DNA of 64,000 bases from Parcubacteria group bacterium Gr01-1014_31 (GTDB lineage Bacteria > Patescibacteriota > Patescibacteriia > Buchananbacterales > GWA2-38-13), in the NCBI GenBank assembly GCA_007376135.1, contig VMFR01000004.1, forward strand, positions 21,745-85,744. Reading direction: 5' to 3'. Positions 2,974 through 62,848 of the stretch are shown one piece after another. The number at the start of each line of letters is the position of its first letter. Position 1 is the stretch's first letter. Both the position numbers and the translations under genes were made by a program. The notes under the pieces are model-generated. The model was given only the letters and a program-made list of their open reading frames with translations, was not told where the DNA came from and made no database searches.

Positions 2974-3477
2974 ATGGGAAAAAATCGCGCTCCGCTCGTC
3001 GGCCTGATCGTTGCCCTAGGACTCGTCCTCTTTGGGCTGTTCATGGGCGCGCGCTGGCTGACCACGTCACGCCGTACACCCGTCCCGCCGGTAACCGTCT
3101 GGGGCCGGTTCCTCGAATATACCCCGAGCTCGCTGACGGTAACCATTGACCAAGCCCCCGTGGCGCCGACCGGACAGGATACCCTGCCGCCGGTGGGCAC
3201 GGAACGGCGCACGGTCTTCCCACTCACGCCGCAAACGACCCTGGTGGCGGAATACTTCATGGGCGACGGTGAACGGGCAACCCTCATCCTGTCAGAGCCG
3301 CTGAACTTCATGAATCTCCTTCCCGGCACCGCGCTCCAGATCGAAGCCATCCCGCTCGGCAATGGGAAGTGGCGCACGCTGTCGGTCAGACGCCGCCAGT
3401 CCATTTCTCGGCCAAACGCAGACGACCCCGCTACCGCCGGCGATACGAACATCCCGCCGCCCATCAGCCCCCCGTAA
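2974..3477 (+). CDS. Hypothetical membrane-anchored protein (N-terminal TM helix, Pro/Thr-rich)
   Basis: ATG at 2974, high GC3, N-terminal hydrophobic segment LVGLIVALGLVLFGLFMG. Divergent from the beta-helix gene. No recognisable family. Confidence 0.45.
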   Translation: MGKNRAPLVGLIVALGLVLFGLFMGARWLTTSRRTPVPPVTVWGRFLEYTPSSLTVTIDQAPVAPTGQDTLPPVGTERRTVFPLTPQTTLVAEYFMGDGERATLILSEPLNFMNLLPGTALQIEAIPLGNGKWRTLSVRRRQSISRPNADDPATAGDTNIPPPISPP

Positions 3478-3504: not shown

Positions 3505-3534
3505 TTGACAATGGAGGGCATTTTATTTTATAAT
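3505..3534 (+). promoter_or_regulatory. Sigma70-type promoter: TTGACA (3505-3510), 18-bp spacer, TATAAT (3529-3534)
   Basis: Exact consensus -35 and -10 hexamers lie ~65 bp upstream of the lemA ATG at 3601. Confidence 0.6.
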
Positions 3535-3600
3535 GCAGTGGTGGGGACCACTATTTTTTGTCCCTCAAGTCTAATTATTATACCATAAACGCACGAACGT

Positions 3601-4158
3601 ATGAACTTCAACGTGCTCTACGTCGTCCTCGGGGTCGTCCTGGTCGTCGCCGTGTGGCTGATCGCCGTCTACAACGGCCTTATCCGCCTGAAAAACCGGG
3701 TCCAGGAGGCCTGGTCGGACATCGAAGTCCAGCTCAAACGCCGCTACGACCTTATCCCCAACCTGATCGAGACGGTCAAAGGCTACGCCACCCATGAACG
3801 CGAGCTGCTGGAGAAGGTGACCGCGGCCCGCACCGCGGCGATGACCTCAGGGTCCCTGGCGGAAAAAGCGCAGGCCGAGAACATGCTGTCACAGACCTTG
3901 AAATCCTTATTCGCCGTCGCCGAGAATTACCCGTCTCTGCGCGCTTCGGAGAATTTCGCCAAGCTGCAGGATGAACTTTCCGACACCGAGAACAAGATCC
4001 AGGCCGCGCGCCGTTTCTACAACAGCCAGGTGCGCGACTTCAACACCAAGATCCAGGTCTTCCCCAACAATTTGATGGCGTCCAGCCTCGGCTTCAAGTC
4101 CCAGGAATTCTTCGATGCGGAAGCGGAGGCCGAGCAGCCGGTCAAAGTGAAGTTTTAA
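3601..4158 (+). CDS. lemA: LemA family protein
   Basis: 185 aa with N-terminal TM followed by a conserved LemA core: NGLIRLKNRVQEAWSDIEVQLKRRYDLIPNLIETVKGYATHERELLEKVTAAR. Confidence 0.9.
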   Translation: MNFNVLYVVLGVVLVVAVWLIAVYNGLIRLKNRVQEAWSDIEVQLKRRYDLIPNLIETVKGYATHERELLEKVTAARTAAMTSGSLAEKAQAENMLSQTLKSLFAVAENYPSLRASENFAKLQDELSDTENKIQAARRFYNSQVRDFNTKIQVFPNNLMASSLGFKSQEFFDAEAEAEQPVKVKF

Positions 4159-4169
4159 ACAATTTACAT

Positions 4170-4253
4170 TTGACGATTAACCTTTGACCGTTGACCTTTA
4201 ACGCGGTCGTCACCCAAGGTCAAATGGTAAATGTCAAAGGTTAAGTGTCGCGC
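4170..4253 (+). promoter_or_regulatory. Heptad-periodic repeat array: five TTGACNN units, a 14-bp spacer, then five GTCAANN units ending 5 bp before the htpX ATG
   Basis: TTGACGA TTAACCT TTGACCG TTGACCT TTAACGC / GTCAAAT GGTAAAT GTCAAAG GTTAAGT GTCGCGC. The same architecture recurs upstream of clpC and of the ligase-like gene. Confidence 0.5.
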
Positions 4254-4258
4254 CACGC

Positions 4259-5146
4259 ATGTATTCCCAGATCACGGCCAATAAGCGCAAAACCTGGCTG
4301 CTGATCGCGATCTTCACCGTCGTTATCCTGGCGGCCGGGTATGCGTTCGGCGAATACGCCGGCATCGGCTACGGCGGGCTGGCGTTTGCCGCCATCGTTT
4401 CCCTGACGATGACGCTCTTCTCGTATTTCGCCGGGGATAAGGTGGCGCTGGCAACCGCAGGGGCCAAGTTGGTCGACCAACAACAAAATCCCTACCTCTG
4501 CCGGATGGTGGAAAATCTGGCCATCACCGCCGGACTCCCCATGCCCCGAGTCTACGTCATCAACGACGGAGCGATCAACGCGTTTGCGACCGGCCGCGAC
4601 CCGCACCACGCGTCGGTCGCGGTCACCACCGGCGCAATGGAAAAATTGGAGAACGAAGAATTGGAAGGAGTGCTGGCCCACGAGTTGTCCCACATCGGCA
4701 ACTACGACATCCGGCTTATGACGATGGTTATCGTGCTCGTCGGCCTCGCCACCCTGCTGTCCGATCTGTTCTTCCGCGCCCGCTGGTTTCACGGCAGCCG
4801 CGGACGCTCCGACAGCCGCGGCGGCAGCGGCATCATCCTGGTCATCGGTATGATCGCACTCATCCTGGCGCCCATCCTCGGCAAACTCATCCAGCTGGCG
4901 GTGTCTCGCAAACGAGAATTCTTAGCGGATGCGAGCGGGGCCCTGCTCACCCGCTACCCCGAGGGGCTGGCGCGAGCGCTGGAAAAGATCGGTGCCGTAA
5001 ACGTTGCGCCGATGCGCGGCGCGCACGAAGCGACTGCGCACCTCTACATCAGCTCACCGTTCGGTGCGGGAAATCGGGTAGCGAAACTCTTCTCCACCCA
5101 CCCGCCGCTCCAAGAACGTATCAAAGTGCTGCGCCAAATGGCGTAA
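4259..5146 (+). CDS. htpX: Zinc metalloprotease HtpX (peptidase M48)
   Basis: HELSHIGNYD (HExxH) motif, N-terminal TM helices, 295 aa, typical HtpX organisation. Confidence 0.9.
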   Translation: MYSQITANKRKTWLLIAIFTVVILAAGYAFGEYAGIGYGGLAFAAIVSLTMTLFSYFAGDKVALATAGAKLVDQQQNPYLCRMVENLAITAGLPMPRVYVINDGAINAFATGRDPHHASVAVTTGAMEKLENEELEGVLAHELSHIGNYDIRLMTMVIVLVGLATLLSDLFFRARWFHGSRGRSDSRGGSGIILVIGMIALILAPILGKLIQLAVSRKREFLADASGALLTRYPEGLARALEKIGAVNVAPMRGAHEATAHLYISSPFGAGNRVAKLFSTHPPLQERIKVLRQMA

Positions 5147-5157
5147 GACAAACCATT

Positions 5158-5238
5158 GACAATTGACTATCACCCGAAGAACGTCAACGGTGAATGGTCA
5201 ACAGTCAAATGCCAATGGTCAAGGGTCAACGGTGAACA
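5158..5238 (+). promoter_or_regulatory. Heptad-periodic repeat array: two ATTGACN units, then eight consecutive GTCAANN-like units ending 4 bp before the clpC ATG
   Basis: ATTGACA ATTGACT ... GTCAACG GTGAATG GTCAACA GTCAAAT GCCAATG GTCAAGG GTCAACG GTGAACA ccgt ATG. Confidence 0.5.
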
Positions 5239-5242
5239 CCGT

Positions 5243-7717
5243 ATGGACATCCTGGAAAAATTCTCTACCCACGGCCGTGCGGCCCTCCGCCAGGCTTTTT
5301 TGCTCAGCCGTGAGTGCGGGAGCCTGACGGTCGAGCCGGAACACCTGCTGTGCGGTATTGCCTTGCAGCGCGGCTCCATCGGCGCGGAAATGCTGGCGAA
5401 GGCCAACCTGAACATCCAAACCATCCAGCAGGCGCTGCCCACGCAGTCACCCAAAGCCATTTTGCTGCCGCGGCTGTCGGAAACGTCGCGACGCAGTCTG
5501 GAGCGCGCCACGCTGCTGTCCAGCCGCTTCGGACACCGGTACATCGGCACCGAGCACCTGCTCGCGGGGCTCCTGGAGCAATCGGCGGGGCGCCTGGAAC
5601 GACTCCTGGCCGTCCAGGGCGTCTCGCGGGAACAGTTGCGTGACCGGCTGGGCGTAGTGTTCAAAAGCACGACGAAATTCCCTGAACTGGCGGAAGCGCT
5701 GGATATCATGAGTGGAAGCGCCCACGAGGACGAGGGTATGCCCGCGACGACCCGCGTTGCGGCCAAGCCGGGCGCCTCGCCGCTCACCAGCTACGCCATT
5801 GAACTCACCGACGACGTGGTGCAGCGGCGCATTGACCCTCTGATCGGCCGGGAATCCGAGGTGGAACGGCTGGTGCAGATCCTGTGCCGGCGCACGAAGA
5901 ACAACCCCCTGCTTTTGGGCGACCCCGGCGTCGGAAAGACGGCCATTGTTGAAGGCCTGGCAAAAAAGATCGTACAAGGCGACGTCCCCGATCCGCTGCG
6001 GCGCCGTCATATCTGGCAGCTGGATCTGGGACTATTGGTTGCCGGGTCGTCCTACCGCGGTGAGTTCGAGCAACGGCTGAAGCTTTTACTGGCCGAGATC
6101 CGGCATCGTCCTGACGTCATTCTCTTCATTGACGAACTGCATGCGATCGTCGGCGCCGGGTCGGCCAGCGGTTCCATGGATGCGGCTAATCTGATGAAAC
6201 CCGCGCTGGCGCGCGGCGAAGTGCGCTGCATCGGCGCGACGACCCAGGAGGATTACAAACGCCATGTGGAGCATGACGCGGCGCTGGAGCGCCGTTTCCA
6301 GCCCATTCTGGTCCGTCAGCCCGATCAGCGCCAAACGGTGGCGATCCTGCGCGGCCTGCGCCCAAGCTACGAACGCTTCCACGGCGTTGCCATCACCGAT
6401 GACGCCATCAGCGCGGCGGTGCAGCTGGCCGACCGCTATGTGATGGGGAAAGCGCAGCCGGATAAATCCATCGACGTGCTGGATGAAGCCTCGGCGATCC
6501 GCAAGATCGCCAGCGTCAAAACGGGCGGCCGCGATCCGTTGCGGACGGCCGAACAGCAGTTGGATGAACTGCTTGCCGGCAAACAACGCGCGGTGGCAGA
6601 GGAACGATTTGAAGATGCGCTGCAGTTGCGCGACCATGAGGCGCGCCTGCGGACAAAGATGACACGGCTGAAGGAGCGTCGCGCGCAGCTGCCGCCGACG
6701 GCGCTGCCGCGCGTCACCGTTGCCGACGTGCACGCGGTCATCGCGAAAATGACCGGGGTGCAATTGGCCGTGCTGCGCACGGGAGAACGGCAGCAATTAC
6801 GCCGCCTGGAACGGCAGCTGGGAGAACGAATTGCCGGCCAAACCGAGGCGCTCCGCAAGGTCGCCCAAGTCATCCGGCGCGCCAAGACCGGCGTTGCCAG
6901 CGTCCGCCGTCCCCTCGGTTCCTTCCTCTTTCTCGGCCCATCCGGCGTCGGAAAAACCGAATTGGCGCGGGTGCTGGCCGATACCGTCTTTGGGGGTGTG
7001 GATGCGCTGGTGCGGCTGGATATGTCCGAATTCGCCGAACCCTTCACCGTCTCGAGGCTGATCGGAGCGCCCGCCGGGTATGTAGGCTACCGCGACTCAG
7101 CGCAGCTCACCGACCTGGTGCGTAAACGCCCCCACAGCGTCGTGCTATTCGACGAAGTAGAGAAAGCCCATCCGCAGGTGCTCACCCTGCTCTTGCAGAT
7201 CCTCGAAGACGGCATCCTCACCGACGCCACGGGAAAAACCGCCAGCTTCCGCAACGCCGTGGTCATCATGACCGCCAACCTCGGCACCGAGGAATTCCTG
7301 CAGCAAGCCGCCATCGGCTTTGACGACCGCCAGGCGGAGCATGAGGAGCGCTTCGCCGCGGTGCAGCAGGCGGTGCTGGCGACGGTCGCGCAGGAGTTCC
7401 CCCCGGAACTGCTCAACCGCATCGACCAAACGATCATTTTCAATCCTCTTTCACTCCCAACTATCGCGCACATCGCCCACCGCCAGCTGCAGGAGCTGGC
7501 CGCCCGGCTGAAAGAACAGGGCACCCAGCTGCGCTGGGGTCCGGCGGTTTGCCGCGCCATTGCCCAGGCCAGTTTTTCGCCCGACCAGGGCGCACGCGCC
7601 GTTCGGCGCACTATCCAGGACTTGGTAGAGACCCCGGCGGCTGAACGCCTGCTGCGGCAACGACGTCCCCCGCGCTTGACGATCCGCGCGCGCGGCGGCG
7701 TCATTACGCTCTCCTAA
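5243..7717 (+). CDS. clpC: ClpC-type Clp/Hsp100 AAA+ chaperone ATPase (ClpA/B family)
   Basis: Two Clp_N repeats. Two AAA modules with Walker A motifs GDPGVGKTA and [11 protein letters not shown]. Short middle domain containing a UVR-like motif ([18 protein letters not shown]), which argues for ClpC rather than ClpB. The likely start is the internal ATG at 5243, since the ORF-track start at 5156 translates the repeat array. Confidence 0.85.
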
Positions 7718-16951: not shown

Positions 16952-17665
16952 TTACCCGTGTGCCAGGGCCACGGCGACCACCTCACCGGACCCTGCGTCC
17001 CGCAACGCTTTCGCGCAGGCACGCATCGTGCTGGCGGTCGTGACCACATCGTCCACCAGCAGGACCCGGCGCGGGGCCGCACCGCGGACGACGAACGCTC
17101 CCCTGACGTTATTCTGTCTTATGCGCTGCGGAAGCCCAACCTGCGGACGGGTCGCCCGCCGGCGGAACAGAATATCCTCGCGCAAAGGCCAGCCAAAATG
17201 TTGCGCCACGGGCGCAGCAAGCAGCGCCGCCTGCTGATAGCCACGCGCGAGGAGCCGGCGGCGGTGGAGGGGTATAGGAATGACCGCATCAAATGCGTCC
17301 GACCACGCTGCTGCGTAACGGAGGTGCTCCAGATGTGCAACCAGCAGCCCCGCCAAGGGATTTGCCAGTGCCTGCACCCCGGTGTACTTCAAAGATTCCA
17401 CCGCCTTTACCAAGGTTCCCTGCCGGTACGGACAAGCCGCGAAAAGCTGCGTCAACGGACAGGAGGCGGCGCATACAAAGCACGGCCGGCCATCCGTGGA
17501 CGGCCGTAAACAACCGGGACAAAACCCGCCCGCGCACTGCCGCAGGCCACCCAGGCAGGCTGTACACAGCCAACTGCCCCGCTCCGCGCATCCGACGCAA
17601 TGGGATGGGAACAGTGTTTCCAGAATTTGCTCACGGGCCTTGGCGGCCCATCTCGGTGGGACCAC
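16952..17665 (-). CDS. comFC: ComF family protein ComFC (phosphoribosyltransferase domain with N-terminal Cys-rich zinc-finger-like region)
   Basis: N-terminal CVGC...CTAC...C..C clusters. C-terminal PRTase motif VLLVDDVVTTASTMRACAKALRDAG. Non-ATG (GTG) start at 17665. Confidence 0.8.
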   Translation of the reverse strand: MVPPRWAAKAREQILETLFPSHCVGCAERGSWLCTACLGGLRQCAGGFCPGCLRPSTDGRPCFVCAASCPLTQLFAACPYRQGTLVKAVESLKYTGVQALANPLAGLLVAHLEHLRYAAAWSDAFDAVIPIPLHRRRLLARGYQQAALLAAPVAQHFGWPLREDILFRRRATRPQVGLPQRIRQNNVRGAFVVRGAAPRRVLLVDDVVTTASTMRACAKALRDAGSGEVVAVALAHG

Positions 17666-17715
17666 AAAATTCCGCTTGCCGGAAGTGGCGGGCGCTCAGG
17701 CGCGACGCGTTACGC

Positions 17716-18288
17716 TCACTGCCATGAGGCCCCATCGACGCGCCAGCCGGCGGTGTTCTTCAGTAGAGTCACCGTCAATTTTTGGTAAAATTGCTGCCGT
17801 CCCGCACCGGTCCGGGTTTCGGAACGCTGCGTCTGCACCACGATCTGCGCTTCCGTTTCCTCGCCGTTGAGGGCGACGATCTCGGCCGACAGTACTTTGG
17901 TCGTGACGCCGTAGAAGCCGTCACCCAGCAGCAGCTGTTGCTGAGCGGCGCGCGCCGTGGCGGCGAATTGCTCCGTCATCAACGGCTGGAGTTGCTGTAA
18001 ATTCGTGCTCCCGCCGTCCGTGGAAAAACTTCCGTAGCGTTCCGCAAAAGTCTTGGCCAGCGCCTCGAGCGTCGCCTGGGTCTTTGGCTCTTTGGTCACC
18101 GGCGGCTCCACCGGTTGAGTTACCGCGCCCCCCGCGGGCGGCAACGTCGTACCTGCCCCGGGCAAAGGGGACGGCTGCCCCAGACCCGCTGGGCGCGCCG
18201 GGCGAGGAGCGCGCGCCACCAACACCAGCGCCAACACCACCAGCAGCGCCAAGACGATTATAGTGATGATCTTCGTCCGCTTGGTCAT
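17716..18288 (-). CDS. Hypothetical membrane-anchored protein, last gene of the T4SS-like block (possible VirB8/TcpC-like NTF2-fold ectodomain; speculative)
   Basis: ATG at 18288 overlaps the virB4-like stop (ATGA). N-terminal TM IITIIVLALLVVLALVLV, a Pro-rich linker, then a ~120-aa soluble domain. Confidence 0.5.
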   Translation of the reverse strand: MTKRTKIITIIVLALLVVLALVLVARAPRPARPAGLGQPSPLPGAGTTLPPAGGAVTQPVEPPVTKEPKTQATLEALAKTFAERYGSFSTDGGSTNLQQLQPLMTEQFAATARAAQQQLLLGDGFYGVTTKVLSAEIVALNGEETEAQIVVQTQRSETRTGAGRQQFYQKLTVTLLKNTAGWRVDGASWQ

Positions 18289-20252
18289 ACGCTTTCACTC
18301 CGATTATCGGCAGCTTTCCGCGTCCCCGGAGCGCCGGTCTGCTCTTCCATCGACTGTGCAAAGTCCTTTTTCGCCTGCTCGATCTCCAACAACTGCCGCG
18401 GGTCCGACGTGATCAGCTGGTCTTCGGCGTACGACGCGACGACCTTGATGGCCGCGTGCTTGTCGCCGGCAAAGAAGATCCCCTCCCCGACGCCGCACTC
18501 CAGCAGCAGGTACTTTTCCCCGTCGGTCAGGACGAACGTTTTGGCGATGAGGTCGATGGATGCGGACGACTGACGCATCAACACCTGGATGGAACTGTTG
18601 GTGACGATCGCCGATCCATACGGCGAAAGCAGGAAATCATTGACGTCCTGGGTGATGGTGGTCACCCCCAGGTAGTACTTGCGGCAACGCTTCACGAGGG
18701 CATAGATGAACTTTGCCGAGTCCTCGTACTGCATCAGCCACCAGGCTTCATCGATGACCATGATGCGGCGCTTCAGCTCGGAGCGCACGACGTTCCAGAT
18801 ATAATTGATAATGGTGTAAATGGCGATCGGCCGCAGCTCGTCCTCCAAATCACGGACGGAAAAGACCACCAGCTGGTTATGGACGTCGATGTTGGTGGGA
18901 CTGTTGAACAAACCGGAGAACGTCCCCTGCGTGTACTTCTGTAACCGAATGACCAGGTCGCCGGACCCTTCCATGCCTTCGAGCACCTCCTGGAAGTCCT
19001 GCATGATCGGGGCCTCCACCGTGGCCAGGTCGGAATTGGCGGTGATGTCTTTCTTGGCGTAGGTTTCCAGCAGCGCGCGGTCAATGAGCGAGTCTTCCTG
19101 TGGAGAGAAGCCAAGCTTGCCCGAATCGCCGATCGGCTTGCCCAGCATGATGCGCAGCAGCCCCTTGAGCGTGATGACCGCGCCGCGGATGATGTCGCCG
19201 GCGCGCTGGTCGCCGACGGGCCGCGGCAGGTCGAACGGATTGAGTTTGCTCTCCGAAGACAGCGAAATATTGATGTACGTGCCGCCGACCGCGTCGCACA
19301 GATGCTGGTACTCGCGCTCGGGGTCGATGATGATGACGTCGGTTCCTAGCATCAGCGACCGCAGCACCTCCAGTTTAATAGTGTAGCTCTTACCGGCGCC
19401 GGAGGTCGCGAACACCACCATGTTGGCGTTCTGCAGGCTGAAACGGTCGAACAAGATCAAACTGTTGTTGTGGCGGTTGATGCCATACAGCACGCCATCG
19501 TCCGAGGTCAGTTCCGACGAAATGAACGGGAATGAGCTGGCGATCGGCGACGAATTCATGTTGAACGCGATCATCAGCATATCCTCGCCCAACGGCATCG
19601 TCGAGGTGAACCCCTGCTCGGCCTGATAGAGCACCTTGCGCGAGTACACCAGCTTGCTGCCGAACAGCGCCTCCACGTCGTCGGTCAGCCGCTCCAGCTT
19701 CTTACGGTCCTCGGCGTAGACCGTCACATACAGCCCGAACTGGAAAAAATGCTCGATCCCCTGGGTCAAATCGTCCCGCAGCTGCTCGATGTCGCGCAAG
19801 GCCGTTTCGCGAATGGGGTCGCGGGGAGCACCTTTCTCGCGGTCGGCCAGGATCTGTGCCTCAAGGTTGCCGACCCGCTTCTTTAGCTGCTTGAGGATGA
19901 CATCCGACCGCACGGGATAGAAGTACATCGAAATGTCCAACGGCAAATTGAGGTTGATGATAGGCGCGAACCACCCGACCGTAATGTACCTGGGGTACCC
20001 GATGACAAACAGCGTCCGCACGAACAGGTCGCCCAGCATCAGGAACGACGGCTTGACCTGGAAAGCCGCCGGCGCGATCAGATCCCGGATGGAAATAAGA
20101 CCTTCGCGGTAGATCCGCTCCTCCTCGAGGATGATCTTCTCCTCGGTGATCTGCCGCTGCTCCAGGCGCTTACGCTCCTCGGCCGACAGCGTCGGGGTCA
20201 AGGGCTTGGCCGCCTGTCTTTCCTCGCGTTCAATTTGCTGTGGTTTGAACAT
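18285..20252 (-). CDS. virB4: VirB4/TrbE/CagE-like type IV secretion ATPase
   Basis: 655 aa. Walker A VVFATSGAGKSYTIK. Walker B RRIMVIDEAWWLM. Overall length and architecture of VirB4-family (AAA_10/DUF87) proteins. Confidence 0.85.
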   Translation of the reverse strand: MFKPQQIEREERQAAKPLTPTLSAEERKRLEQRQITEEKIILEEERIYREGLISIRDLIAPAAFQVKPSFLMLGDLFVRTLFVIGYPRYITVGWFAPIINLNLPLDISMYFYPVRSDVILKQLKKRVGNLEAQILADREKGAPRDPIRETALRDIEQLRDDLTQGIEHFFQFGLYVTVYAEDRKKLERLTDDVEALFGSKLVYSRKVLYQAEQGFTSTMPLGEDMLMIAFNMNSSPIASSFPFISSELTSDDGVLYGINRHNNSLILFDRFSLQNANMVVFATSGAGKSYTIKLEVLRSLMLGTDVIIIDPEREYQHLCDAVGGTYINISLSSESKLNPFDLPRPVGDQRAGDIIRGAVITLKGLLRIMLGKPIGDSGKLGFSPQEDSLIDRALLETYAKKDITANSDLATVEAPIMQDFQEVLEGMEGSGDLVIRLQKYTQGTFSGLFNSPTNIDVHNQLVVFSVRDLEDELRPIAIYTIINYIWNVVRSELKRRIMVIDEAWWLMQYEDSAKFIYALVKRCRKYYLGVTTITQDVNDFLLSPYGSAIVTNSSIQVLMRQSSASIDLIAKTFVLTDGEKYLLLECGVGEGIFFAGDKHAAIKVVASYAEDQLITSDPRQLLEIEQAKKDFAQSMEEQTGAPGTRKAADNRSESV

Positions 20253-20335
20253 TGATGTTTGGGGCTAGTACCCGGTGCTCTGTGCCCAGTGCTCCGTGCG
20301 TATCGTCACCGTCGTAACTATACTGAGCACATGCG

Positions 20336-21058
20336 CTAGGGCTCGACCTGCAGTTGGTTAAGATCGGCGAGCTTCTGCCGTTCGGACGCCCCGGGGTTAT
20401 AGGTATTGTAATACAGTTCGATCAACCCCTGGGTGTCCAAGAGTGCTGCTTTCAACCCGATACTGCCCAACGACGCCACAACATGGTCAACCCGCTGCAT
20501 CAGATCACGCCGACGCTGCAAGAACCGTTCGCGCGACAGCCGTACTGACCCCGCCGCCTTGAAGACCTCGAGCAGACGCTTGAACCACCCCTTCTGCTTG
20601 TCCGACAGGGGATTATGCGGCACCACGACATAGAAACGCTTGGTCATGATCTCACCCAGCTCCACCAGCTCGGTGACGTAGTTGCGGTACTCGGCGATCT
20701 GGAGTTTCAGCAACTCATTGGTCTGCTCCTTTTCTTTCTGCTCCAAGCGCGTCAGATATCCGCTGATGTTAAGCTTGCGCGACTGAATGAGAATCTGGAG
20801 GGGAAAATCGATGGCATTCAGAAAATTCACGTAGGCCGCAATGATCGCATTTTGCTCTTCCTCCGACTTGAGCGAAAAATTGATGCTCGACACCAACAGC
20901 ACCGCCCGTAAGGTCCCGTCCTTGAGCACGACGCAATCCTCCTTGACCTCGGCGATCGGCAGATGCCGCTGCGTCGACGGCGTTTTCGCCGCCGGACGAG
21001 CCGGCAATCCGGTGGAAGCGGCGTCCTTTGCCCCTGCGGTCTTCTTGGCTTTTGCCAT
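20336..21058 (-). CDS. Hypothetical protein, T4SS-associated (between the PrgI-like and VirB4-like genes)
   Basis: 240 aa with ATG at 21058, an N-terminal Lys/Ala-rich segment and no TM. Its position suggests an apparatus component. Confidence 0.5.
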   Translation of the reverse strand: MAKAKKTAGAKDAASTGLPARPAAKTPSTQRHLPIAEVKEDCVVLKDGTLRAVLLVSSINFSLKSEEEQNAIIAAYVNFLNAIDFPLQILIQSRKLNISGYLTRLEQKEKEQTNELLKLQIAEYRNYVTELVELGEIMTKRFYVVVPHNPLSDKQKGWFKRLLEVFKAAGSVRLSRERFLQRRRDLMQRVDHVVASLGSIGLKAALLDTQGLIELYYNTYNPGASERQKLADLNQLQVEP

Positions 21059-21071
21059 ACTGTTGTGCAGC

Positions 21072-21509
21072 TCAGTCCTGGGCCGTTTCGCCCTCGTAAA
21101 CGCCGCCGGTATCCACGATCAGGGATAATTCCACCAGCCGCGAACTACCCACGAGCGGTTTATGACGGGGCGGTACGATCGGCTTGGTCGTTATTTCCTT
21201 CATCGCCAGCTGGAGCTCGGCCAGCGTCAATCGTTTGTCCCAGAGGGTCAGGCGCGGCCGCTTTATGGTTTGGATGAAATTGAGGATAAAATAATGGACC
21301 GGGCGACCGTTGATCTTGATGAACGCGAACACAATGGTAAACACCGCGATTACCAGTAACCAGAGCAGGAACAAAGTGAAATCGGAAACCTTATACGCCA
21401 GGAACACCAGCCCGCCGGACACCAGTAAAATAATGAACTGGCGCACCGTGATGGGACCGATGACCTTGTCCTCCACGTCGAGGAATTGCGGAACCACGAA
21501 CTGCTGCAT
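21072..21509 (-). CDS. PrgI/VirB3-like small membrane protein
   Basis: 145 aa. MQQFVVPQFLDVEDKVIGPITVRQFIILLVSGGLVF followed by two TM helices. It lies immediately upstream of the VirB4 region, as PrgI-family proteins do in Gram-positive-type T4SS. Confidence 0.55.
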   Translation of the reverse strand: MQQFVVPQFLDVEDKVIGPITVRQFIILLVSGGLVFLAYKVSDFTLFLLWLLVIAVFTIVFAFIKINGRPVHYFILNFIQTIKRPRLTLWDKRLTLAELQLAMKEITTKPIVPPRHKPLVGSSRLVELSLIVDTGGVYEGETAQD

Positions 21510-21613
21510 TACCGTAGTGCTAGGTACTACGTACTATGTGCAAAGTACTTTTCGTGCGCGGATGAACAACTGCCGACCGAACGCACATAGAACTTAGCAC
21601 TTAGAACGTAATA

Positions 21614-22768
21614 CTAAAACCTCAACGTCCGATTAAAATCCGCAACGGCCTCGAACTCGGCAATGCTCAGCACCGGCGTTCCGGGGGTCGCCTGCGCACC
21701 CAGCATCTCGCTGATCGGCCGCTTCTCCGCCATCGCACGACCGGCCGTCGCCGTGTACAGGTTGAATACTTCGCAGGACCGCCAGGCCGCGATTGCTGCC
21801 GCTTTCTGGGCAAAGGACTGCTGCTCAAGCAGAGCGATCTTTTCGCGTAAGTGTTCCGTGGCGCGGCGCGGATCGGCATCCAAGCGGCGGAAGTCCTGCA
21901 GGGTCATCTGACCGATCTCTTCCAGGGGACCGACCAACTGCGGCCGGTACCGCACTTCCGGCACTTGCTCTGCCGCGGGTTCGGCGGCAGGCGCGGGCGG
22001 TTCCGCCAGTCGCGGTAAAGGAGGCAACATTGCCGGCGGCGCGATGGGTAAAACTGCGGGCTCAGGCTGCAGGGACCTCGTCGGCACCAATAACGACGGC
22101 AACTCTGGCGGTAGCGCGGACGGACCCGGCGGAACGGCGACGGACGGACGGCTGATCAACGATGGACGCTTGGGCGGGGGCGGTGGTACCGTCATCCGGG
22201 CGGGAGCGGCGGGCGGGAGCGGCTGCAAGGACATGCGCCGCGGCGGCGCGATCGGCGCGGTTGAGATGGGGATGGAGGGCCCTTGCGGTATGACCCCGCT
22301 GACGTTGGCCTGCAACTGGGCGACGGCCTGGTCCTGCTGCTGACGGCTGCCCTCGCTGAACTGGCGGTAGTATTTTTCAATGACCGCAGAGGCTGTTTCC
22401 GCCTGCTCGGCAGCGAACCCCAACCCGCCGACCTTCACCGGTCGGGCCATCGCTTCGCGAGTTTCAATGGCATCCCGAATGTCTTTGAACCGCGCCAAAA
22501 CCTGGGTGCGCAGCCGTTTCTGCAATATTGGGTCGGGCAATGGCAGCGCCAATTCTTTAATGACCTGGCCAACGAACGATTCCACTGGGGATGGTTGAGG
22601 GGAAAGCGGCACGGGAGGGGATGCGAGAACCGATGGCGCGGCCGTCGGCTGCGCGGCACTGCGCCACGGCTCTACGATGCCGCCGCGCAACACCTTCAGC
22701 TGCCCATCAGCATCCTTGAAGAGTACCTCCTCGCTGCCGGTGAACGGGTTGTATACAGCCTCAGGCAT
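21614..22768 (-). CDS. Proline-rich hypothetical protein
   Basis: Long Pro/Ala low-complexity core flanked by structured N- and C-terminal regions. Start chosen at the ATG at 22768 (ORF-track start 22792 is GTG). Confidence 0.5.
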   Translation of the reverse strand: MPEAVYNPFTGSEEVLFKDADGQLKVLRGGIVEPWRSAAQPTAAPSVLASPPVPLSPQPSPVESFVGQVIKELALPLPDPILQKRLRTQVLARFKDIRDAIETREAMARPVKVGGLGFAAEQAETASAVIEKYYRQFSEGSRQQQDQAVAQLQANVSGVIPQGPSIPISTAPIAPPRRMSLQPLPPAAPARMTVPPPPPKRPSLISRPSVAVPPGPSALPPELPSLLVPTRSLQPEPAVLPIAPPAMLPPLPRLAEPPAPAAEPAAEQVPEVRYRPQLVGPLEEIGQMTLQDFRRLDADPRRATEHLREKIALLEQQSFAQKAAAIAAWRSCEVFNLYTATAGRAMAEKRPISEMLGAQATPGTPVLSIAEFEAVADFNRTLRF

Positions 22769-22779
22769 GAATAGAAGGT

Positions 22780-24072
22780 TTACGGCAACCACTTGAAAGT
22801 CTTTTCCCGCACATCAAAGTACGCCAACTTTTCATACTGATGCCGCCCGCGCTGCTTGAAGATGTTGGACAGCTGCGCTCCGACACGAGCGGCGTCATGC
22901 TCGGGCACATCCAAACGCTCCTGTAGAACGTATTGTATAAACAACTGCACCGACTGTCTACTTAACGGCTGCTGCGCAAGGGTATCCGCCGCCGCCTGGC
23001 CGTACAACGATGGCCACACGGACAGCAAATGCTGCCGCAAAGCCTGATCCTCGGCCAGCATTCGCTCCAACTGGTCGGCCTGCGCCAATAAACGCAGCGC
23101 CGCCACCGCGCGAGGCACATTCCGCGACTGTACCGCCGCGAAGAATTCGGCGGCCAATTTTTTTGGGTCATCACCGACCTTGGCCCGGATACCGGACGCC
23201 GCTTCGGTGACTGCCCGCTGGTCGGCGTCGCCGCCGCGGTAGGCGGCCACGATATGTCCCAAAGCGGGGGCCGTCACCGTTGCAGCGGCAGGCTCCGTTA
23301 TCGCTCTGCCGCCGACGCGCTCCACTACTGGCTCCAGTGCGGCGCGCTCTTCCACGATAGGCGCCTTATGCGGAAAGCGCAGCAGATCGTAGGTCTCCAA
23401 AAGCTTCGTCAAGATCTCTCGGTCGGCATTATTCAACCGTTTCACGTTGGCATCGCGCTGCAAAAAATGGGCTCGCTCCACCGGTCCGCGTTCCTGGTTC
23501 AACGGGAACGAACCGTTGTAGACCCGCAGCCAGTTCTGTACCGTCGGGTCTATGCGTTCCGGACTCTCCGGCACGGTCAGGGGCGTTTCACCGATCGTTT
23601 CCGCATTCAATCCGATCACCCGGAGAATGATATTGCTCACGTTCACCGCCAGGTCGGGCTCGCCATAGCTGATGAGCGCCGCCTGCATCCCTGAGGCCAG
23701 GTCCAACCCTGCCCGCAACGCCATCACGGTGCTGGACTGGAATACCTCCTCGACGTCGCGAACCCGCAGTACGGCGACACCGGCCACCTTCAGGAGCGCG
23801 ATGATCTGCTGCAGGCGCTCTTCATCGGTTACATCCAGGAGCGTCCGGTCCGAGGACGGGGAAAGCAGACCCTGCAACCGATGCGCCAACTGTAACGCCA
23901 ACCCCCATTCATGTGCTGCGTCCAGGTAAAGTAGGGTGGCATACAGGCGGTCGAAGGCCTTGGGCTGTTTCACCCAGCGCACGTCGACAAATCCGAACTC
24001 TTCCTCGGTCAAACCCTGATCGAGGTCCGGCTTCCGGTTCGCCAAAAAATGGTAACTCAATCGCTCGGCCAT
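22780..24072 (-). CDS. Hypothetical protein (T4SS-like block)
   Basis: ~430 aa with no recognisable motifs. Start chosen at the ATG at 24072 (MAERLSYHF), just after the upstream stop. The ORF-track ATG at 24165 would overlap the giant gene. Confidence 0.5.
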   Translation of the reverse strand: MAERLSYHFLANRKPDLDQGLTEEEFGFVDVRWVKQPKAFDRLYATLLYLDAAHEWGLALQLAHRLQGLLSPSSDRTLLDVTDEERLQQIIALLKVAGVAVLRVRDVEEVFQSSTVMALRAGLDLASGMQAALISYGEPDLAVNVSNIILRVIGLNAETIGETPLTVPESPERIDPTVQNWLRVYNGSFPLNQERGPVERAHFLQRDANVKRLNNADREILTKLLETYDLLRFPHKAPIVEERAALEPVVERVGGRAITEPAAATVTAPALGHIVAAYRGGDADQRAVTEAASGIRAKVGDDPKKLAAEFFAAVQSRNVPRAVAALRLLAQADQLERMLAEDQALRQHLLSVWPSLYGQAAADTLAQQPLSRQSVQLFIQYVLQERLDVPEHDAARVGAQLSNIFKQRGRHQYEKLAYFDVREKTFKWLP

Positions 24073-24076
24073 AAAA

Positions 24077-27000
24077 TTAAATGGTGGGCCGGCTTTTCGG
24101 CGGTTCACCGGGTAATGATTCCGGCGGGATCGAAGGGATCTCCGAGGCGCCAGCCGACCCTTCATTACGCTGTGCCATCTCCTGCAGAGACCTATTGATC
24201 TGGAAGAGAATATCTGCGAGTTCGTCGGCTTGTTCCTGGGTCACCCCCGTCCCCATTGCCGCCGCTGACTCGAAATCTTGGACGCGACCCATCCCTTCCC
24301 GCAGATTCTTGCTCAGGGTATCGAACTTCTTCGCCGCATCTTTTTCGTCCTTACCGGCGCTCTCGCTGGCCCCCTCCTGCACCGCCTGCAGCGATTGGAT
24401 CCCATTGGCGACCTCCTGTAAACCGGTAGCCATCGACTTCAGCGTCGTCTCCAACGATTTAACATCAACTGACGGTAACTGCTTTGCCGCCCGCGTCTGG
24501 GTATCGACTTCCTCCACCACCGCCTGCACCGCAGCGGTACGCTGCCCGGTCGGCGAACCTGCGGGTGCCGCCGATCGCGTTTCTCCCGCTGCCGCGAAAC
24601 CGGCCGACGACTCGCGGGATGTAGGCGAAGGGGCTGCCGCAGCGGATGGCGCAGGTTTGGCTTTCGGCGGCGGAACGGCCCGCACCGACGGCGGCGCAAT
24701 GCCCTCGGCCGCAGCCTCGGCTGCGCGGCCGACATTTTCTTCTGCCGCGGTGGCGATATTCTCGGCCTGCTCAACCAGATCCATAAGACCCGCAGAGAAA
24801 CCCTGGATCTCTCCCATGCGCTGTTCGATCTGCTCCATCTCTCCGCTCTGTTCGGCGATCGCTTGCTGCGCCTTACGCAGTGCGGCGACATTACCCGTTG
24901 ACTGGGCCCGCTGCGCCGCAGCACTCTGCTGCTGCAAGGCAGCCCCTACCGCGAGACGGCGCTTGTCCAGATGCTCATACTCCTTGCTCATGGCCGGGAG
25001 CTCCTGCTCCCCCATCGTCTTTGCTTCCCCGAGCCGCCGCCGAGCGATCGCCAACTCCTCCTGTGCGAGAACAAGATCACTTACGTCAGCAGCGTTCTTT
25101 AATACCAAATCATCCCATTCGCCGATCTCTTTATCGACGCCTTTGATCTGACTGCCCACCGCGTTGAAACGGTCTTGTGCGGTTTTCACGGCGTCATTGG
25201 CGCGCTTGCGTTCCGCACCCGGCGCGGCCTTGGCCTGGCGCGCTTGCTGCTTTTGCAGGTCTTTCTCTGCGGCTTGATGCTGTTGGACCAATCCCGACCG
25301 TTTCTCAGTGAGCTCACGATAGTTGAAATCGCGCTTTGTTTTTGCGGTCGAGAGTTCCTGACCCGCTTCTTTCAGGCCGCTGCCCCTTGCCTTGGGAGCG
25401 AGGCCCAAACGGCGGCGCTTCACGGTGTAATCAAGCTGGTCCCGAATGATCTGTGCTCGCTGGGCGCGGTCGTGGGCTGCCCGGGCCCCGGCATCATCCC
25501 CCTGGGTTGCCTTTTCCTCCGCTTCCTTATTGTTCGCTTCCAATTCGGATTGGGCATTGCTTAATTGCTGGGCGAGCTCGTCCTTGCTCAAAGTACCCGC
25601 GGCGTCACGGACCGCGGCAGCGAACGTTTCCAGGGATTGCACAGATTCCTCAACCCGGCGCCGGTAATCGGCTTGAACGCCATCAAACGCCTGGGAATCC
25701 TTCGCGACAACGCCTTGTTGTTCGGTAACGGCGTCGGCGGCGGCGACAACCTCCTGCTGCTTGACCCGCGCGAGCGTTTGGGCTTCTTCCTGGGCCTGAT
25801 AATTCCCCTCTTCGGCGGCCTTGCGGGCCTGCGCGTTCAATTCCGCGAGTTCAACCTGCCGTTGGTCGCGCACCTTAACGCGATTCCCCAATTCCAGTTG
25901 GCTGGCCTGTAATGCTTGCTCCTTGGCCCCGATCTCCTGCTTGGCGCCAACCACTTCCTCGCGGTTTCCCTGGCGCGCCGCCAAAAACTTCTCTTCCACG
26001 GCAGTCAGCGCCTGCTGGCCCTTACTGACCGGTACGGGCTTGGGTTGCTGCGCCTGCACCGCGCGCTCCTTGGCCTGCACCTCCTGCTGCTGTTTTGCGA
26101 TGCGCTGTTGTGCGGCACGCAAATCCCGTTCCGCGGCCTGGGCCAGGCGCTCCTGCCTCCCGGCTTCTTCCTGGTTGCCTTGGTCTGCGGCCCGCTTCCT
26201 CAATCGGTGATGCACCTGGGCGCGACGGGCAAGCTCATCGTGATTCTGTTCCAATTCCGCCAATTTGCCGCGGCTTCCCGATAGCTCCTGCTGCGCGCGC
26301 GCCGCTACATTCTCAGGCTTTGCCGCCTCACGACGTTCTTGGGTGTATCGAACGCGCTCCTGCAGCGTCGTCAAGAGTTCAGGGAAAGCCTGGTCGGCCT
26401 GCCGCGCGTTGTCCAGCGCCTCTTCCTTGCCCGCCACGTCGCGACGCTTGGTGCTGATTTGCTGGTCAAGTTGCGCCAGCTGCTGAGCGGACTGGTCGGC
26501 CTGCTGGCGCGCTGCCGCGATCTCCTGGGGCGTCAGACCAATACCTGCCTGCTGCACCGCCGCCTGGTTGATCTGCACCGCCTCGCCCAACGCCTGCTGG
26601 TCAGCACGATGCTGTACGAGCGTACGCCTGGACTCCTGCAGGCGAAGGTACTCGGCGTCGTAGGCCTGACGCTTTACGCCAACGTCCTGGCGCGCCCTTC
26701 CATGATGTTCGACAGCCGCCGCAACGCGCGTTTCCTGTGCGGCCTTGGCGGCGTTCTGCGCGTCGATCTGCTCGTTCAGCTGCGCCAACGGTGCGGCGAT
26801 CTTTTCCTCGGCGGTGGCGGCCAGCGCCTGCTCACGGGTCGCTTCCTCAAGCGCCTGCTGTTCGGCCAAAGCATTACCACTCGCCCTCGCGGCGTTCAAA
26901 CGCTGGCTCGCAGCGTTCTGGTTGGTGAGATGTTGGTCGCGTTCACGAGTCAAGACATCGCGATTTCCCATCAACGTCGTCAACTGGGTTTGTATCGCCT

Positions 27001-31822: not shown

Positions 31823-31835
31823 GGTTGACAGTTCA

Positions 31836-55764: not shown

Positions 55765-56055
55765 AGAAGATTTGCTTAAGAATTGATAGACAAAGTATAC
55801 CACCGCGGCCGCGCGCGGATGTGGATAAAACGCCTACCGACCATTAAATGAACTGTATCCGTTGCGTCGCAGGAGTCCGATAACCTCCGCAATCAGATTC
55901 GCCACTCGGCGGTGTACTAAACGACCTCGCAACCTATCAAGGTTGACAAGACGAATGGGTTACCACCGGCTTTTTAATCGTAGCACACAATTCTCGGGCG
56001 GAAAACGTAGGTTATGCAGCCTTGGGCCGCACAACTCATCATCCGGCATGCTCTC

Positions 56056-62805: not shown

Positions 62806-62813
62806 AAAAACAA

Positions 62814-62848
62814 TTGACCATGAACAATTGACAATTAACATTGAGACG
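62814..62848 (+). promoter_or_regulatory. TTGACNN heptad array (5 units) immediately after the rnj stop. Distal half of the third heptad-array pair.
   Basis: TTGACCA TGAACAA TTGACAA TTAACAT TGAGACG. Confidence 0.4.

Follow-up and report, generated by a model that had tools for sequence, protein, structure and literature searches.

CtsR sites consist of two heptads that are set in a 10-bp register and overlap a promoter, and the heptads of the omega system of plasmid pSM19035 follow the consensus WATCACW. The heptads at the ctx locus of Vibrio cholerae recruit ToxT and H-NS from a position upstream of the -35 box, as is also stated in a preprint abstract. Roles in mRNA stability and processing are known for dispersed intergenic palindromes of the REP/BIME type and for the hairpins that RNase III acts on between cistrons, for instance in phage T7 early mRNA. 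The omega (ParB) heptads that form parS of pSM19035 occur as seven to ten contiguous units in mixed orientation, at least four contiguous units being needed (PMC9499535), and the TTTTGAT heptads of V. cholerae ctxAB vary in copy number between strains, a variation that is linked to expression according to the abstract (bioRxiv 10.1101/2021.05.14.444153). TAACTGA heptamer repeats are known from marine Beggiatoaceae, cyanobacteria and Bacteroidetes (MacGregor 2015, PMC4679880), where they end about 1 nt before start codons that have no Shine-Dalgarno (SD) sequence (PMC4679880), and heptamer repeats near start codons of Nostoc PCC 7120 showed effects in reporter assays (bioRxiv 10.1101/2022.06.06.494920).

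For Parcubacteria (CPR), our literature search found no report of start-proximal heptamer repeats. Gene regulation in the CPR is hardly known; these organisms have few transcription factors, and SD sequences are few in the DNA analysed here. This DNA, a 64-kb stretch from a Parcubacteria group bacterium that is referred to as the window at its full length, carries heptad arrays that belong to a lineage-typical Parcubacteria class of cis-element, in which 7-nt units (8-nt in some relatives) form two opposed arrays within same-strand gaps.

Heptad arrays at four gene junctions

Array 1 fills the lemA–htpX gap (4159–4258, plus strand). Its left arm (4163–4204) begins 4 nt past the lemA stop codon and is made of six in-phase TTRACNN heptads (TTTACAT TTGACGA TTAACCT TTGACCG TTGACCT TTAACGC), with a TRF period of 14. 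A 14-nt spacer (4205–4218, GGTCGTCACCCAAG) leads to the right arm (4219–4253), whose five GTYAANK-type heptads (GTCAAAT GGTAAAT GTCAAAG GTTAAGT GTCGCGC) end 5 nt short of the htpX ATG at 4259. As read from the sequence, this spacer starts with a GCG-GTC hinge that is common to array 3 and includes a TCACCC motif that is also present in array 2. The htpX–clpC gap, on the same strand, holds array 2, in which a left arm of two heptads (5155–5168, ATTGACA ATTGACT) begins 8 nt past the htpX stop codon and is followed by a 14-nt spacer (5169–5182, ATCACCCGAAGAAC) and by a right arm (5183–5238) of eight contiguous GTYAANK heptads, five of them exact GTCAANN and three with one core mismatch, ending 4 nt short of the clpC ATG at 5243. 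The end of this arm together with the 4-nt linker (5229–5242, ACGGTGAACACCGT) is predicted to form a small hairpin before the clpC ATG.

The initial annotation had named both flanked genes correctly, as confirmed by Pfam (Peptidase_M48 of the HtpX type for htpX; Clp_N and two AAA domains for clpC), and most of the layout it gave stands: the 14-nt spacer, five right heptads and 5-nt distance to the ATG at htpX, and the two left heptads, eight right heptads and 4-nt distance at clpC. The left arm at htpX, however, has six heptads and not five, and the spacer ATCACCCGAAGAAC at clpC had been overlooked. The two orientations had further been described as a composite palindrome, and the arms are indeed complementary, because they consist of oppositely oriented units; this complementarity has no unique register, however, since shifts by one or two heptads pair 14–17 of 28 positions compared to 17–18 of 28 in the best register and about 6 in non-unit registers. 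No unique dyad was seen at the arrays, given the near-equal pairing of the unit-shifted registers.

Two further elements had escaped the initial annotation, namely a third GTYAA element in the gap between the RNase J and Wzy_C genes (62813–63051) and a fourth palindrome (21514–21620, minus strand), also made of heptads but of an unrelated unit.

In array 3 (plus strand), the distal left arm (62813–62840; ATTGACC ATGAACA ATTGACA ATTAACA) begins 7 nt past the RNase J stop codon, and the left arm is split by a structured insert of about 146 nt (62841–62983) from its proximal part (62986–62999; TTTGACC TCTGACT), which is followed by a GCG hinge (63000–63002). The edges of the insert are inverted heptads (TTGAGAC...GTCTCAA), its predicted fold reaches -52 kcal/mol (z=-5.0), and it has no Rfam match; it is present in strain L209 and missing from L207, and the two halves of the left arm are contiguous in the sister strain. 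The right arm (63003–63051) consists of seven GTYAANK heptads that run into the Wzy_C/TPR open reading frame (ORF). Its ATG (63022–63024), also the start chosen by the gene caller, falls within the heptad GTCAAAT/G, so that the last four heptads are coding (MSTVNGQRSN); this context is kept in L207 and L209, and the ATG lies within a heptad in three strains. Array 4, recognised from a lag-7 peak, its sequence and Pfam, has the unit TANGTRC, with a left arm (21620–21579, minus strand) that overlaps the upstream gene's stop codon and a right arm (21548–21514) ahead of a PrgI/TcpE-like type IV secretion gene (ATG at 21509). Right arms thus end 5, 4 and 4 nt before the ATG in arrays 1, 2 and 4, and array 3 contains the ATG. 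The junctions of arrays 1–3 are similar (stop codon, 3 nt and AACCATTGACAATT), at three loci in 64 kb that share one unit.

Searching the 64-kb window for GTCAANNGTCAANNGTCAA (GTCAANN × 3) with up to two mismatches gave 17 matches where 0.11 were expected, a number reached in 0 of 100 shuffles, and motif-free autocorrelation of the window showed that, once multiples of 3 are set aside, only lags 7 and 14 reach at least 24/35. The arrays are thus non-random and heptad-periodic, as had been proposed, with lag 7 as the sole non-codon periodicity that has outliers. All 17 matches in the window fall in three intergenic regions. A scan of reference genomes for GTCAANN × 4 returned matches in many phyla, mostly cyanobacteria (STRR-type repeats) and Bacteroidota among the matches listed; the source species was not among these, and the scan yielded no regulon information.

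Within the unit (G 1.0, T.94, Y, A.90, A.90, N, K), only the core is constrained, and identity between adjacent units is non-uniform along its positions (p=3e-8); the unit is position-constrained and therefore under selection rather than in neutral decay. Counts of sense-strand G·U versus A·C mismatches (42:63, 20:36 and 10:9) gave no wobble excess in three data sets, in a test of low power because most mismatches sit in free spacer positions.

Comparing strains showed that the arrays lengthen and shorten by whole units via replication slippage. The left arm of array 2 has two heptads here and four in the sister strain, with an aligned indel of exactly 14 nt, and the Wzy_C ORF here exceeds that of L207 by 21 nt, an in-frame difference of 3 heptads or 7 codons. 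Set against contingency loci, copy number therefore differs between strains by 14 nt in non-coding and by 21 nt in coding DNA; the reading frame survives the coding change, and on/off switching was not observed. Annotators should be aware that heptad arrays may enter ORFs, altering N-termini seven codons at a time.

Architecture and distribution in related genomes

The orthologous htpX and clpC gaps of L003 and L001 (HtpX identity 73–79%) have an alike architecture, from which the GTCAA unit is missing; they are built instead from CCAAR/TTTGG, TGCAAA/TTTGCA or GGAATT, and the two adjacent gaps of L003 use different units. The CAA-type strand forms the right arm in the source genome and the left arm in L003. 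More distant htpX loci likewise carry inverted arrays, of period 7–8 and with many different units. This shows that unit sequence turns over fast between lineages and loci, and that the architecture stays at the same gene junctions. Loci of one genome mostly have unrelated units, as seen across the CPR loci and at the type IV secretion locus of the window, which argues against a single sequence-specific trans factor.

In 639 kb of CPR DNA, of which 84% is coding, we counted 62 intergenic and 17 coding arrays of period 7, 8, 14 or 16, an intergenic enrichment of about 19-fold. Array density was 1.0 per kb in co-directional gaps compared to 0.12 per kb in divergent promoter gaps, with arrays in 31 of 184 co-directional and 1 of 38 divergent regions (p=0.02). 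A signal in convergent gaps was left aside: array 3 had been misassigned by crude gene calls, the signal is partly an artefact, and of the gap-type results we use only the depletion in divergent gaps.

The association with proteostasis genes noted at this locus extends over the lineage. Where the upstream gap measures 60 nt or more, an array lies in front of 8 of 30 HtpX and 3 of 7 ClpC genes, compared to 10 of 168 others (OR 6.7, p=1.5e-4), and one GroEL gene with an upstream array was found in a relative. An association with the 3' side of htpX was ruled out (p=0.76). Other genes preceded by such elements encode Wzy_C, type IV secretion (T4SS), Mur ligase and GatA proteins; the stress-regulon operator of the initial annotation fares poorly in the window itself, where the GTCAA unit also precedes the Wzy_C gene and a different unit precedes the type IV secretion gene. 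Across the CPR loci, right arms end 0–20 nt from the next start codon. L198 and L134 have direct-only arrays with no inverted partner, direct-only arrays of some relatives ending 0–6 nt from the ATG, and some arrays of L134 and L152 lie in 3' regions with no start nearby. Overall, the arrays are fast-evolving, repeat-built inverted elements that fill same-strand gaps and favour protein-quality-control genes.

These data also bear on the idea that the arrays have no regulatory function and are selfish or neutral products of slippage and template switching, a REP/MITE-like dispersed family that would be tolerated only in existing gaps and whose effects on htpX and clpC are incidental. Heptanucleotide repeats are reported to outnumber all other long simple repeats of prokaryotes (Mrazek 2007, as cited in PMC4679880), GTCAANN × 4 runs occur in many phyla among the matches listed, and whole-unit indels, quick unit turnover, junction sequence shared by arrays 2 and 3 beyond the heptads, the insert that breaks up array 3 and the missing G·U excess are all in line with this idea. 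It nevertheless appears unlikely to us: the positions of the unit differ strongly in conservation (p=3e-8), the same gene junctions bear arrays repeatedly despite replaced sequence, the enrichment upstream of htpX and clpC holds after conditioning on gap length, divergent gaps of similar length are depleted of arrays, and no RAYT/IS200-type Y1 transposase was found by Pfam in the window ORFs.

Transcription, regulators and RNA folding

A sigma70-type promoter upstream of lemA (3505–3534, plus strand; TTGACA-N18-TATAAT, 12/12 match) is, judged by its sequence, the likely promoter of a putative lemA–htpX–clpC transcript, on which arrays 1 and 2 would be intercistronic. A promoter scan found no sigma70-like sites within these two arrays, and manual checking of TTGAC as a -35 box at every spacing gave no acceptable -10. 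The scan for intrinsic terminators found none at arrays 1–3, its only matches lying at 3537–3555. Starts adjoining the arrays have no SD core, in agreement with the remark that the arrays leave no room for one; this is nothing special in the window, however, where an SD core is present at only 7 of 33 gene starts and is missing from lemA as well.

The initial annotation had likened the arrays to a CtsR-type stress operator, a proposal that our searches contradict. The CtsR pattern RGTCAAANANRGTCAAA with up to two mismatches is absent from the arrays, its single match in the window being a chance coding-region match at 19445, and the arrays keep a strict 7-nt register, unlike the 10-bp register of CtsR. 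The CIRCE pattern TTAGCACTC-N9-GAGTGCTAA with up to three mismatches gave 0 matches in the window, Pfam detected no CtsR, HrcA or other regulator domain in the 50 window ORFs, and no ctsR (typically the leading gene of a clpC operon) or hrcA homologue or other regulator domain was found beside clpC in L001, L003 and L124. Taken with a unit that changes between relatives and with the lack of sigma70-like sites in arrays 1 and 2, a GGTCAA heptad upstream of clpC is no evidence for a CtsR regulon and should not be annotated as such.

A broader form of DNA operator would have a small multimerising repressor, for example a winged-helix protein similar to CtsR or an RHH protein such as the omega of pSM19035, bind each GTYAA heptad in whichever orientation, coat the ~90-bp gap and roadblock htpX and clpC until stress. 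A conserved 5-bp core with a free spacer is what protein sites look like, three loci in 64 kb have one and the same unit in both orientations, periods of 7–8 bp match known RHH operators (PMC9499535), and both the enrichment upstream of htpX and clpC and the missing G·U excess would fit constraint at the DNA level. We nevertheless hold this operator to be likewise unlikely, since arrays 1 and 2 contain no promoter-like hexamers, divergent promoter gaps hold almost no arrays, and no regulator domain is encoded in the window or beside clpC of relatives. The unit also changes between close relatives, between the adjacent gaps of L003 and at the T4SS locus of the window, which would call for several co-evolving proteins; from core to core, the hinge is spanned by 21, 20 and 9 bp in arrays 1, 2 and 3, no fixed multiple of 7, and array 3 extends into an ORF.

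At the RNA level, the array hairpins are predicted to be more stable than shuffles (z -1.8 to -3.2), with energies of about -29 to -37 kcal/mol at 37 °C; array 1 (4159–4264) folds at -31.7 kcal/mol (z=-3.2) and array 4 at -37.5 kcal/mol (z=-2.5), and the L207 hairpin (z -2.25) has a predicted perfect 12-bp stem that takes in spacer positions. In the predicted folds of arrays 2 and 3, the left arm is short and leaves most heptads of the right arm unpaired. Rfam searches at gathering and permissive thresholds (E up to 1) returned only four tRNAs in the window.

The position of elements before htpX and clpC, and before groEL in one relative, brings to mind a classical RNA thermometer, a hairpin that would hide heat-shock gene starts in the cold and melt on heat shock; the periodic internal loops of the hairpins would suit this, as would the outermost predicted stem of array 1, in which UACAU pairs with the start-codon AUGUA. 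Such structures are, however, far too stable, alike elements precede Wzy_C, T4SS, Mur ligase and GatA genes, and no ROSE, fourU or other Rfam family matched. Additionally, predicted start accessibility (-15 to +10) of array genes was not lower than that of 30 other genes at 10 to 55 °C (Mann-Whitney p about 0.8–1.0), and warming brought no particular opening. Given this lack of difference, we reject the thermometer as highly improbable; on the reading favoured below, the arrays are neither a CtsR-like or other promoter operator nor a simple RNA thermometer.

The unpaired stretches point to another RNA-level possibility, in which single-stranded GUYAANK repeats would serve as a platform for the ribosome (S1), a cold-shock-type protein or a TRAP/HutP-like oligomer, promoting or blocking SD-independent initiation, with the inverted arm as an anti-platform sequestering the repeats. 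The right arms of arrays 2 and 3 are longer than the left and unpaired up to the AUG in the predicted folds, direct-only arrays in some relatives end 0–6 nt from the ATG, the genome is SD-poor, the unit core is conserved, and precedents exist in the TAACTGA repeats (PMC4679880) and in the Nostoc heptamers with reporter effects (bioRxiv 10.1101/2022.06.06.494920). What makes this platform quite improbable in our judgement is that arrays are rare in divergent gaps, whose first cistrons also need initiation, that units differ among loci of one genome, that orientation to the gene is not kept among relatives (the CAA strand being the right arm here and the left in L003), and that some arrays lie in 3' regions with no nearby start (L134, L152).

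The reading we favour, tentatively and at a probability of roughly 0.4, is that the arrays are slippage-built intercistronic RNA stem-loops acting post-transcriptionally, in line with the RNA-level element that had been offered as an alternative and with the depletion of arrays from divergent promoter gaps. The arrays would be transcribed within polycistronic mRNA, here most likely lemA–htpX–clpC from 3505–3534, as modular, multi-register stem-loops beside the SD-less start of the downstream cistron, whose expression they might set in three ways: as a substrate of a double-strand-specific RNase that leaves a short leader before the AUG, by protecting the upstream message, or by gating ribosome access or coupling after termination at the stop codon 4–8 nt before the left arm. 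The 5-nt core and free 2-nt spacer could be read as 5-bp helices with internal loops between them, and with all units interchangeable, pairing would withstand frequent register shifts.

Several observations point this way: the architecture is kept without the sequence at orthologous htpX and clpC gaps; arrays are intergenic, common in co-directional and rare in divergent gaps; arrays 1 and 2 have no promoter or terminator and a perfect promoter lies upstream of lemA; right arms are close to start codons, with enrichment 5' but not 3' of htpX; and the unit is position-constrained, the hairpins are stabler than shuffles and strains differ by whole units. Counted against the stem-loops are the lack of a G·U excess, start accessibility like that of other genes, the unpaired right-arm heptads of arrays 2 and 3 and the direct-only arrays of L198 and L134; the unit and junctions shared by three loci would also fit dispersed repeats or one binding protein.

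A wider and distinctly doubtful extension is that Patescibacteria may control internal cistrons, notably htpX, clpC and groEL, by undescribed palindromes of 7–8-nt repeats that replace conserved operators, with free sequence, slippage-tuned length and a partner that senses structure or period, be it an RNase, the ribosome or a co-evolving multimerising nucleic-acid-binding protein. If true, this would be lineage-specific stress and expression control in organisms with very few transcription factors. The architecture that recurs at htpX and clpC junctions with replaced sequence is a testable candidate for control of internal cistrons and proteostasis genes.

Comparison with known repeat systems

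The arrays resemble the CtsR operators of Firmicutes clpC, clpP and clpE in a core similar to RGTCAAA and in their position upstream of clpC, which is followed by radA here as in Firmicutes; they differ from them in having 5–8 contiguous heptads, a 7-bp register and an inverted arm. With the ctxAB heptads and contingency loci they share whole-unit indels between strains, but not the promoter context. Like REP/BIME elements, they are genome-specific imperfect palindromes between co-directional genes, with several copies sharing junction sequence, whereas REPs are without tandem 7-nt units and are tied to RAYT transposases, none of which was seen in the window.

At the DNA level, the omega heptads of pSM19035 are, by analogy, the best structural analogue, with 5–8 contiguous 7-bp units per arm in both orientations here. 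Omega sites, however, overlap plasmid promoters and have their cognate RHH protein encoded nearby, whereas Pfam found no RHH domain in the window ORFs, arrays 1 and 2 have no promoter, and the arms stand 3–14 nt apart in no fixed phase.

Start-proximal heptamer repeats are matched by the contiguous 7-nt units (2–10 copies), which are mostly intergenic, face the downstream gene and end a few nt before, or overlap, an SD-less start in an SD-poor lineage. The TAACTGA type consists of one exact heptamer at many loci, with inverted copies very rare; the window has one degenerate unit family at three loci in 64 kb, always with an inverted arm, and a second family at the fourth. The unit here, a 5-nt core with two free positions, is degenerate and varies by locus and lineage, an upstream opposed array creates a composite palindrome, and array distribution is skewed towards htpX and clpC and away from divergent gaps. 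Besides Beggiatoaceae, cyanobacteria and Bacteroidetes, heptamer repeats at start codons are thus present in a fourth SD-poor lineage, in which inverted array pairing, a constrained core and depletion from promoter-only gaps are new compared to the known heptamer repeats.

Heptad arrays and their units

Heptad arrays take up nearly all of the 100-nt lemA-htpX gap (array 1, 4163–4253, plus strand) and the 96-nt htpX-clpC gap (array 2, 5155–5238, plus strand) in this window of 61% GC. The surrounding genes, for a small membrane protein (2974–3477), LemA (3601–4158), an M48/HtpX peptidase (4259–5146), ClpC (ATG 5243–7717) and, near clpC, a PD40-repeat protein followed by RadA, all lie on the plus strand. 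The initial annotation reported both arrays, and the sequence confirmed them just as described; its layout of two oppositely oriented arms, gene-distal (left) and gene-proximal (right), also holds, with two amendments: six units are in phase in the left arm at htpX, and a 14-nt spacer is present in the clpC element as well.

Searching the window for three consecutive GTCAANN heptads with at most two mismatches gave 17 matches against 0.11 expected, all 17 in three intergenic regions. Motif-free autocorrelation of the window, with multiples of 3 set aside, showed outliers only at lag 7 and its harmonic 14, the lag-7 regions being 4154–4205, 5180–5245, 21577–21627 and 62996–63068. Since outliers fall outside the htpX and clpC gaps, two elements had been overlooked: a third GTYAA element (array 3, 62813–63051, plus strand) between the genes for RNase J and a Wzy_C/TPR membrane protein, and a fourth heptad-periodic composite palindrome (21514–21620, minus strand) with an unrelated unit, TANGTRC, which stops 4 nt short of the ATG of a PrgI/TcpE-like type IV secretion (T4SS) gene. 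Arrays 2 and 3 have a common 5' junction right after the upstream stop codon (stop, 3 nt, then AACCATTGACAATT; 5147–5168 in the window, 3937–3960 in the sister strain L207), and the hinge TTTAAC(T)-GCG-GTC is common to arrays 1 and 3, indicating that the copies are paralogous members of a dispersed family and not independent inventions.

A unit profile built from 31 heptads of the Gr01-1014_31 species reads G(1.00) T(.94) Y(C.68 / T.26) A(.90) A(.90) N K, and both arms are built of this one unit, reversed in orientation. Identity between adjacent units at positions 1–7 (1.0/.84/.48/.84/.84/.40/.36) is strongly non-uniform (chi-square p = 3e-8), so the core is constrained while the two spacer positions are free. 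The arrays are real, and selection acts on the core of their unit.

The T4SS/conjugation-like genes (16952–24165 and 55147–57075; PrgI/TcpE-like, TraC-like, TraG P-loop ATPase, T4SS pilin) include another start-proximal repeat, a period-14 direct repeat (CCCAGTGCTCCGTG x2.1, 20271–20299) that precedes the ATG of a TraG/VirB4-like ATPase gene (18285–20252, minus strand) by 18 nt. Also present are two giant ORFs, of 2589 aa (24077–31846) and 3248 aa (32843–42589), and relatives carry an additional giant beta-helix/NosD-type protein upstream of lemA.

Whole-unit change and replacement

In the sister strain (GCA_030648715.1, HtpX 98% identical), the arrays are almost the same as in the window; the clpC left arm is longer by exactly 14 nt, or two heptads, and the off-consensus heptad GCCAATG of the window reads GTCAATG. 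Its RNase J/Wzy_C gap is a compact 64 nt in which a GCG hinge joins four left to four right heptads and nothing else is present, and the Wzy_C ATG lies inside the last heptad (GTCAA-ATG). The same ATG is found in the window and in a third strain, L209, but with an additional 21 nt (three heptads, seven codons) just 3' of it, so that the N-terminus reads MSTVNGQRSN... there and MSQSN... in the sister strain. Differences of 14 and 21 nt imply that the arrays change by whole units, and the three heptads gained or lost as seven Wzy_C codons imply that surviving change inside an ORF keeps the reading frame. The arrays are built and resized via whole-unit slippage. That they are simply a dispersed family of slippage palindromes with no function we consider unlikely.

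Heptads run into the Wzy_C/TPR ORF in all three strains (window 63022–63051; L207 4001–4020; L209 766–806), and adding or losing just one heptad would put this surface-polysaccharide gene out of frame, giving it a potential for phase variation; no frameshifted allele was seen in the three strains. A structured insert of ~146 nt (62841–62983), present in the window and L209 and missing from L207, interrupts array 3 within its left arm. Flanked by inverted heptads (TTGAGAC...GTCTCAA) and folding at -52 kcal/mol (z = -5.0), it has no match in Rfam, contains a doubtful 46-aa ORF (62857–62997) and could be a small structured RNA or a miniature mobile element.

Relatives with 73–79% HtpX identity retain the lemA-htpX-clpC order. 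The matching gaps of one (L003) hold period-7 inverted arrays of CCAAR/TTTGG and TGCAAA/TTTGCA units, while another (L001) has GGAATT-type units before clpC and no evident array in the htpX gap. Many of 80 metagenomic htpX loci (51–64% identity) show a run of units, a loop, a run of reverse-complement units and the ATG. Their 7- or 8-nt units are different in every lineage, and at some loci the array is direct-only and abuts the ATG. Array sequence is replaced while the architecture stays at the same junctions. In a scan of reference genomes, four other CPR genomes (L084, L092, L106, L119) showed (GTCAAAA)n runs in apparent coding sequence that would encode VKSQKSK-type repeats; L041 has GTCAAAA x4 opposite TTTTGAC-type units as an inverted pair.

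Placement relative to genes

Across 639 kb of CPR DNA (84% coding) analysed with TRF, arrays of period 7, 8, 14 or 16 were intergenic in 62 cases versus 17 coding, a ~19-fold intergenic enrichment per base; multiple-of-3 periods were mostly coding. In 22 of the 62 intergenic arrays, the end lies no more than 20 nt from the start codon that follows. Under strict criteria, an element precedes 3/12 ClpC, 5/77 HtpX, 1/58 LemA and 6/372 other genes. When only genes with 60 nt or more of upstream gap are counted, arrays precede HtpX in 8/30, ClpC in 3/7, LemA in 3/26 and other genes in 10/168 cases (HtpX and ClpC versus other genes, OR 6.7, p = 1.5e-4). An association with the 3' side of htpX was rejected (4/28 vs 19/151, p = 0.76), the 5' side holding instead. 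Array density is 1.0 per kb in co-directional and 0.12 per kb in divergent gaps; among regions of at least 60 nt, 31/184 co-directional versus 1/38 divergent ones have an array (p = 0.02), the sole divergent match being no true heptad array. The signal in convergent gaps is in part a gene-calling artefact. Arrays cluster between genes of the same strand, are over-represented upstream of htpX and clpC, and are avoided in gaps that are promoter-only.

Such an element also abuts the ATG of a GroEL gene (L168), but the same holds for genes of a Mur ligase, GatA, a HicB-like protein and, in the window, Wzy_C and T4SS. Genuine arrays lie 3' of genes in L134 and L152; in L134 (2300–2421), direct heptads CAATTTC/CAAATCC sit between the htpX stop and a canonical GC-stem/T-run terminator, so such arrays can occupy 3' untranslated regions too.

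Candidate mechanisms and known systems

The CtsR-like stress-regulon operator initially proposed for htpX and clpC was not borne out: the 10-bp-register consensus is not in the arrays, the motif is not kept in relatives, and neither the window nor the neighbourhood of clpC in relatives yielded a ctsR gene. CIRCE is likewise absent. Arrays 1 and 2 contain no acceptable sigma70 promoter, array 3 has a weak site (9/12) overlapping its distal left arm, and the only strong site nearby is a perfect TTGACA-N18-TATAAT (3505–3534) upstream of lemA. A DNA-binding repressor that multimerises and forms a roadblock is about as improbable as a functionless family. A terminator-like hairpin and T-run (3537–3560) follow the lemA promoter within 3 nt (span 3505–3560), ~40 nt before the ATG, and the pair may form an attenuator or 5' stabiliser.

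A terminator scan at the arrays and a comparison with known RNA families returned no match. Arm registers shifted by whole units pair almost as well as the best register (14–17 versus 17–18 of 28 Watson-Crick positions), non-unit registers averaging ~6, and predicted RNA hairpins of the four elements exceed shuffled controls in stability (z -3.2, -1.9, -1.8, -2.5). As a sign of RNA-specific pairing, an excess of G.U over A.C was sought on the sense strand and not seen (42:63), a weak test because mismatches sit mostly in spacer positions. An RNA thermometer is very improbable, as the hairpins are too stable and, at 10–55 C, the -15 to +10 region matches 30 other genes in accessibility. Most gene-proximal heptads of arrays 2 and 3 have no pairing partner in the predicted fold. 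A platform of single-stranded RNA to which the ribosome or an RNA-binding oligomer would bind seems less probable than a repressor.

A Shine-Dalgarno (SD) core occurs at only 7/33 starts in the window versus ~11% of random windows, making SD-less starts the rule. A short RCGT motif (acgtATG, ccgtATG, agcgtATG) stands right before many ATGs (among them 3601, 5243, 17716–18288 minus, 45617–46447 minus, 60997) and may be a lineage-specific initiation context. We favour, at a probability of roughly 40%, a reading in which the arrays would be transcribed as part of polycistronic mRNAs, where modular stem-loops or repeat platforms would act on the SD-less cistron that follows by way of processing, stability or ribosome access.

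Heptamer direct repeats ending beside SD-less start codons have been described in Beggiatoaceae, cyanobacteria and Bacteroidetes, with a mechanism that is still unknown (PMC4679880), and near start codons in Nostoc (bioRxiv 10.1101/2022.06.06.494920). In our reference-genome scan, GTCAANN runs were commonest, among the matches listed, in these phyla, above all cyanobacteria and Bacteroidota. As we found no description of such elements in the Patescibacteria literature, we regard the arrays as a variant of this known but unexplained phenomenon. They resemble the CtsR heptad only superficially; at the DNA level, the omega/ParB heptad operator of pSM19035 (PMC9499535) offers the best analogue, and the nearest described phenomenon is the heptamer direct repeats of Beggiatoaceae, cyanobacteria and Bacteroidetes.
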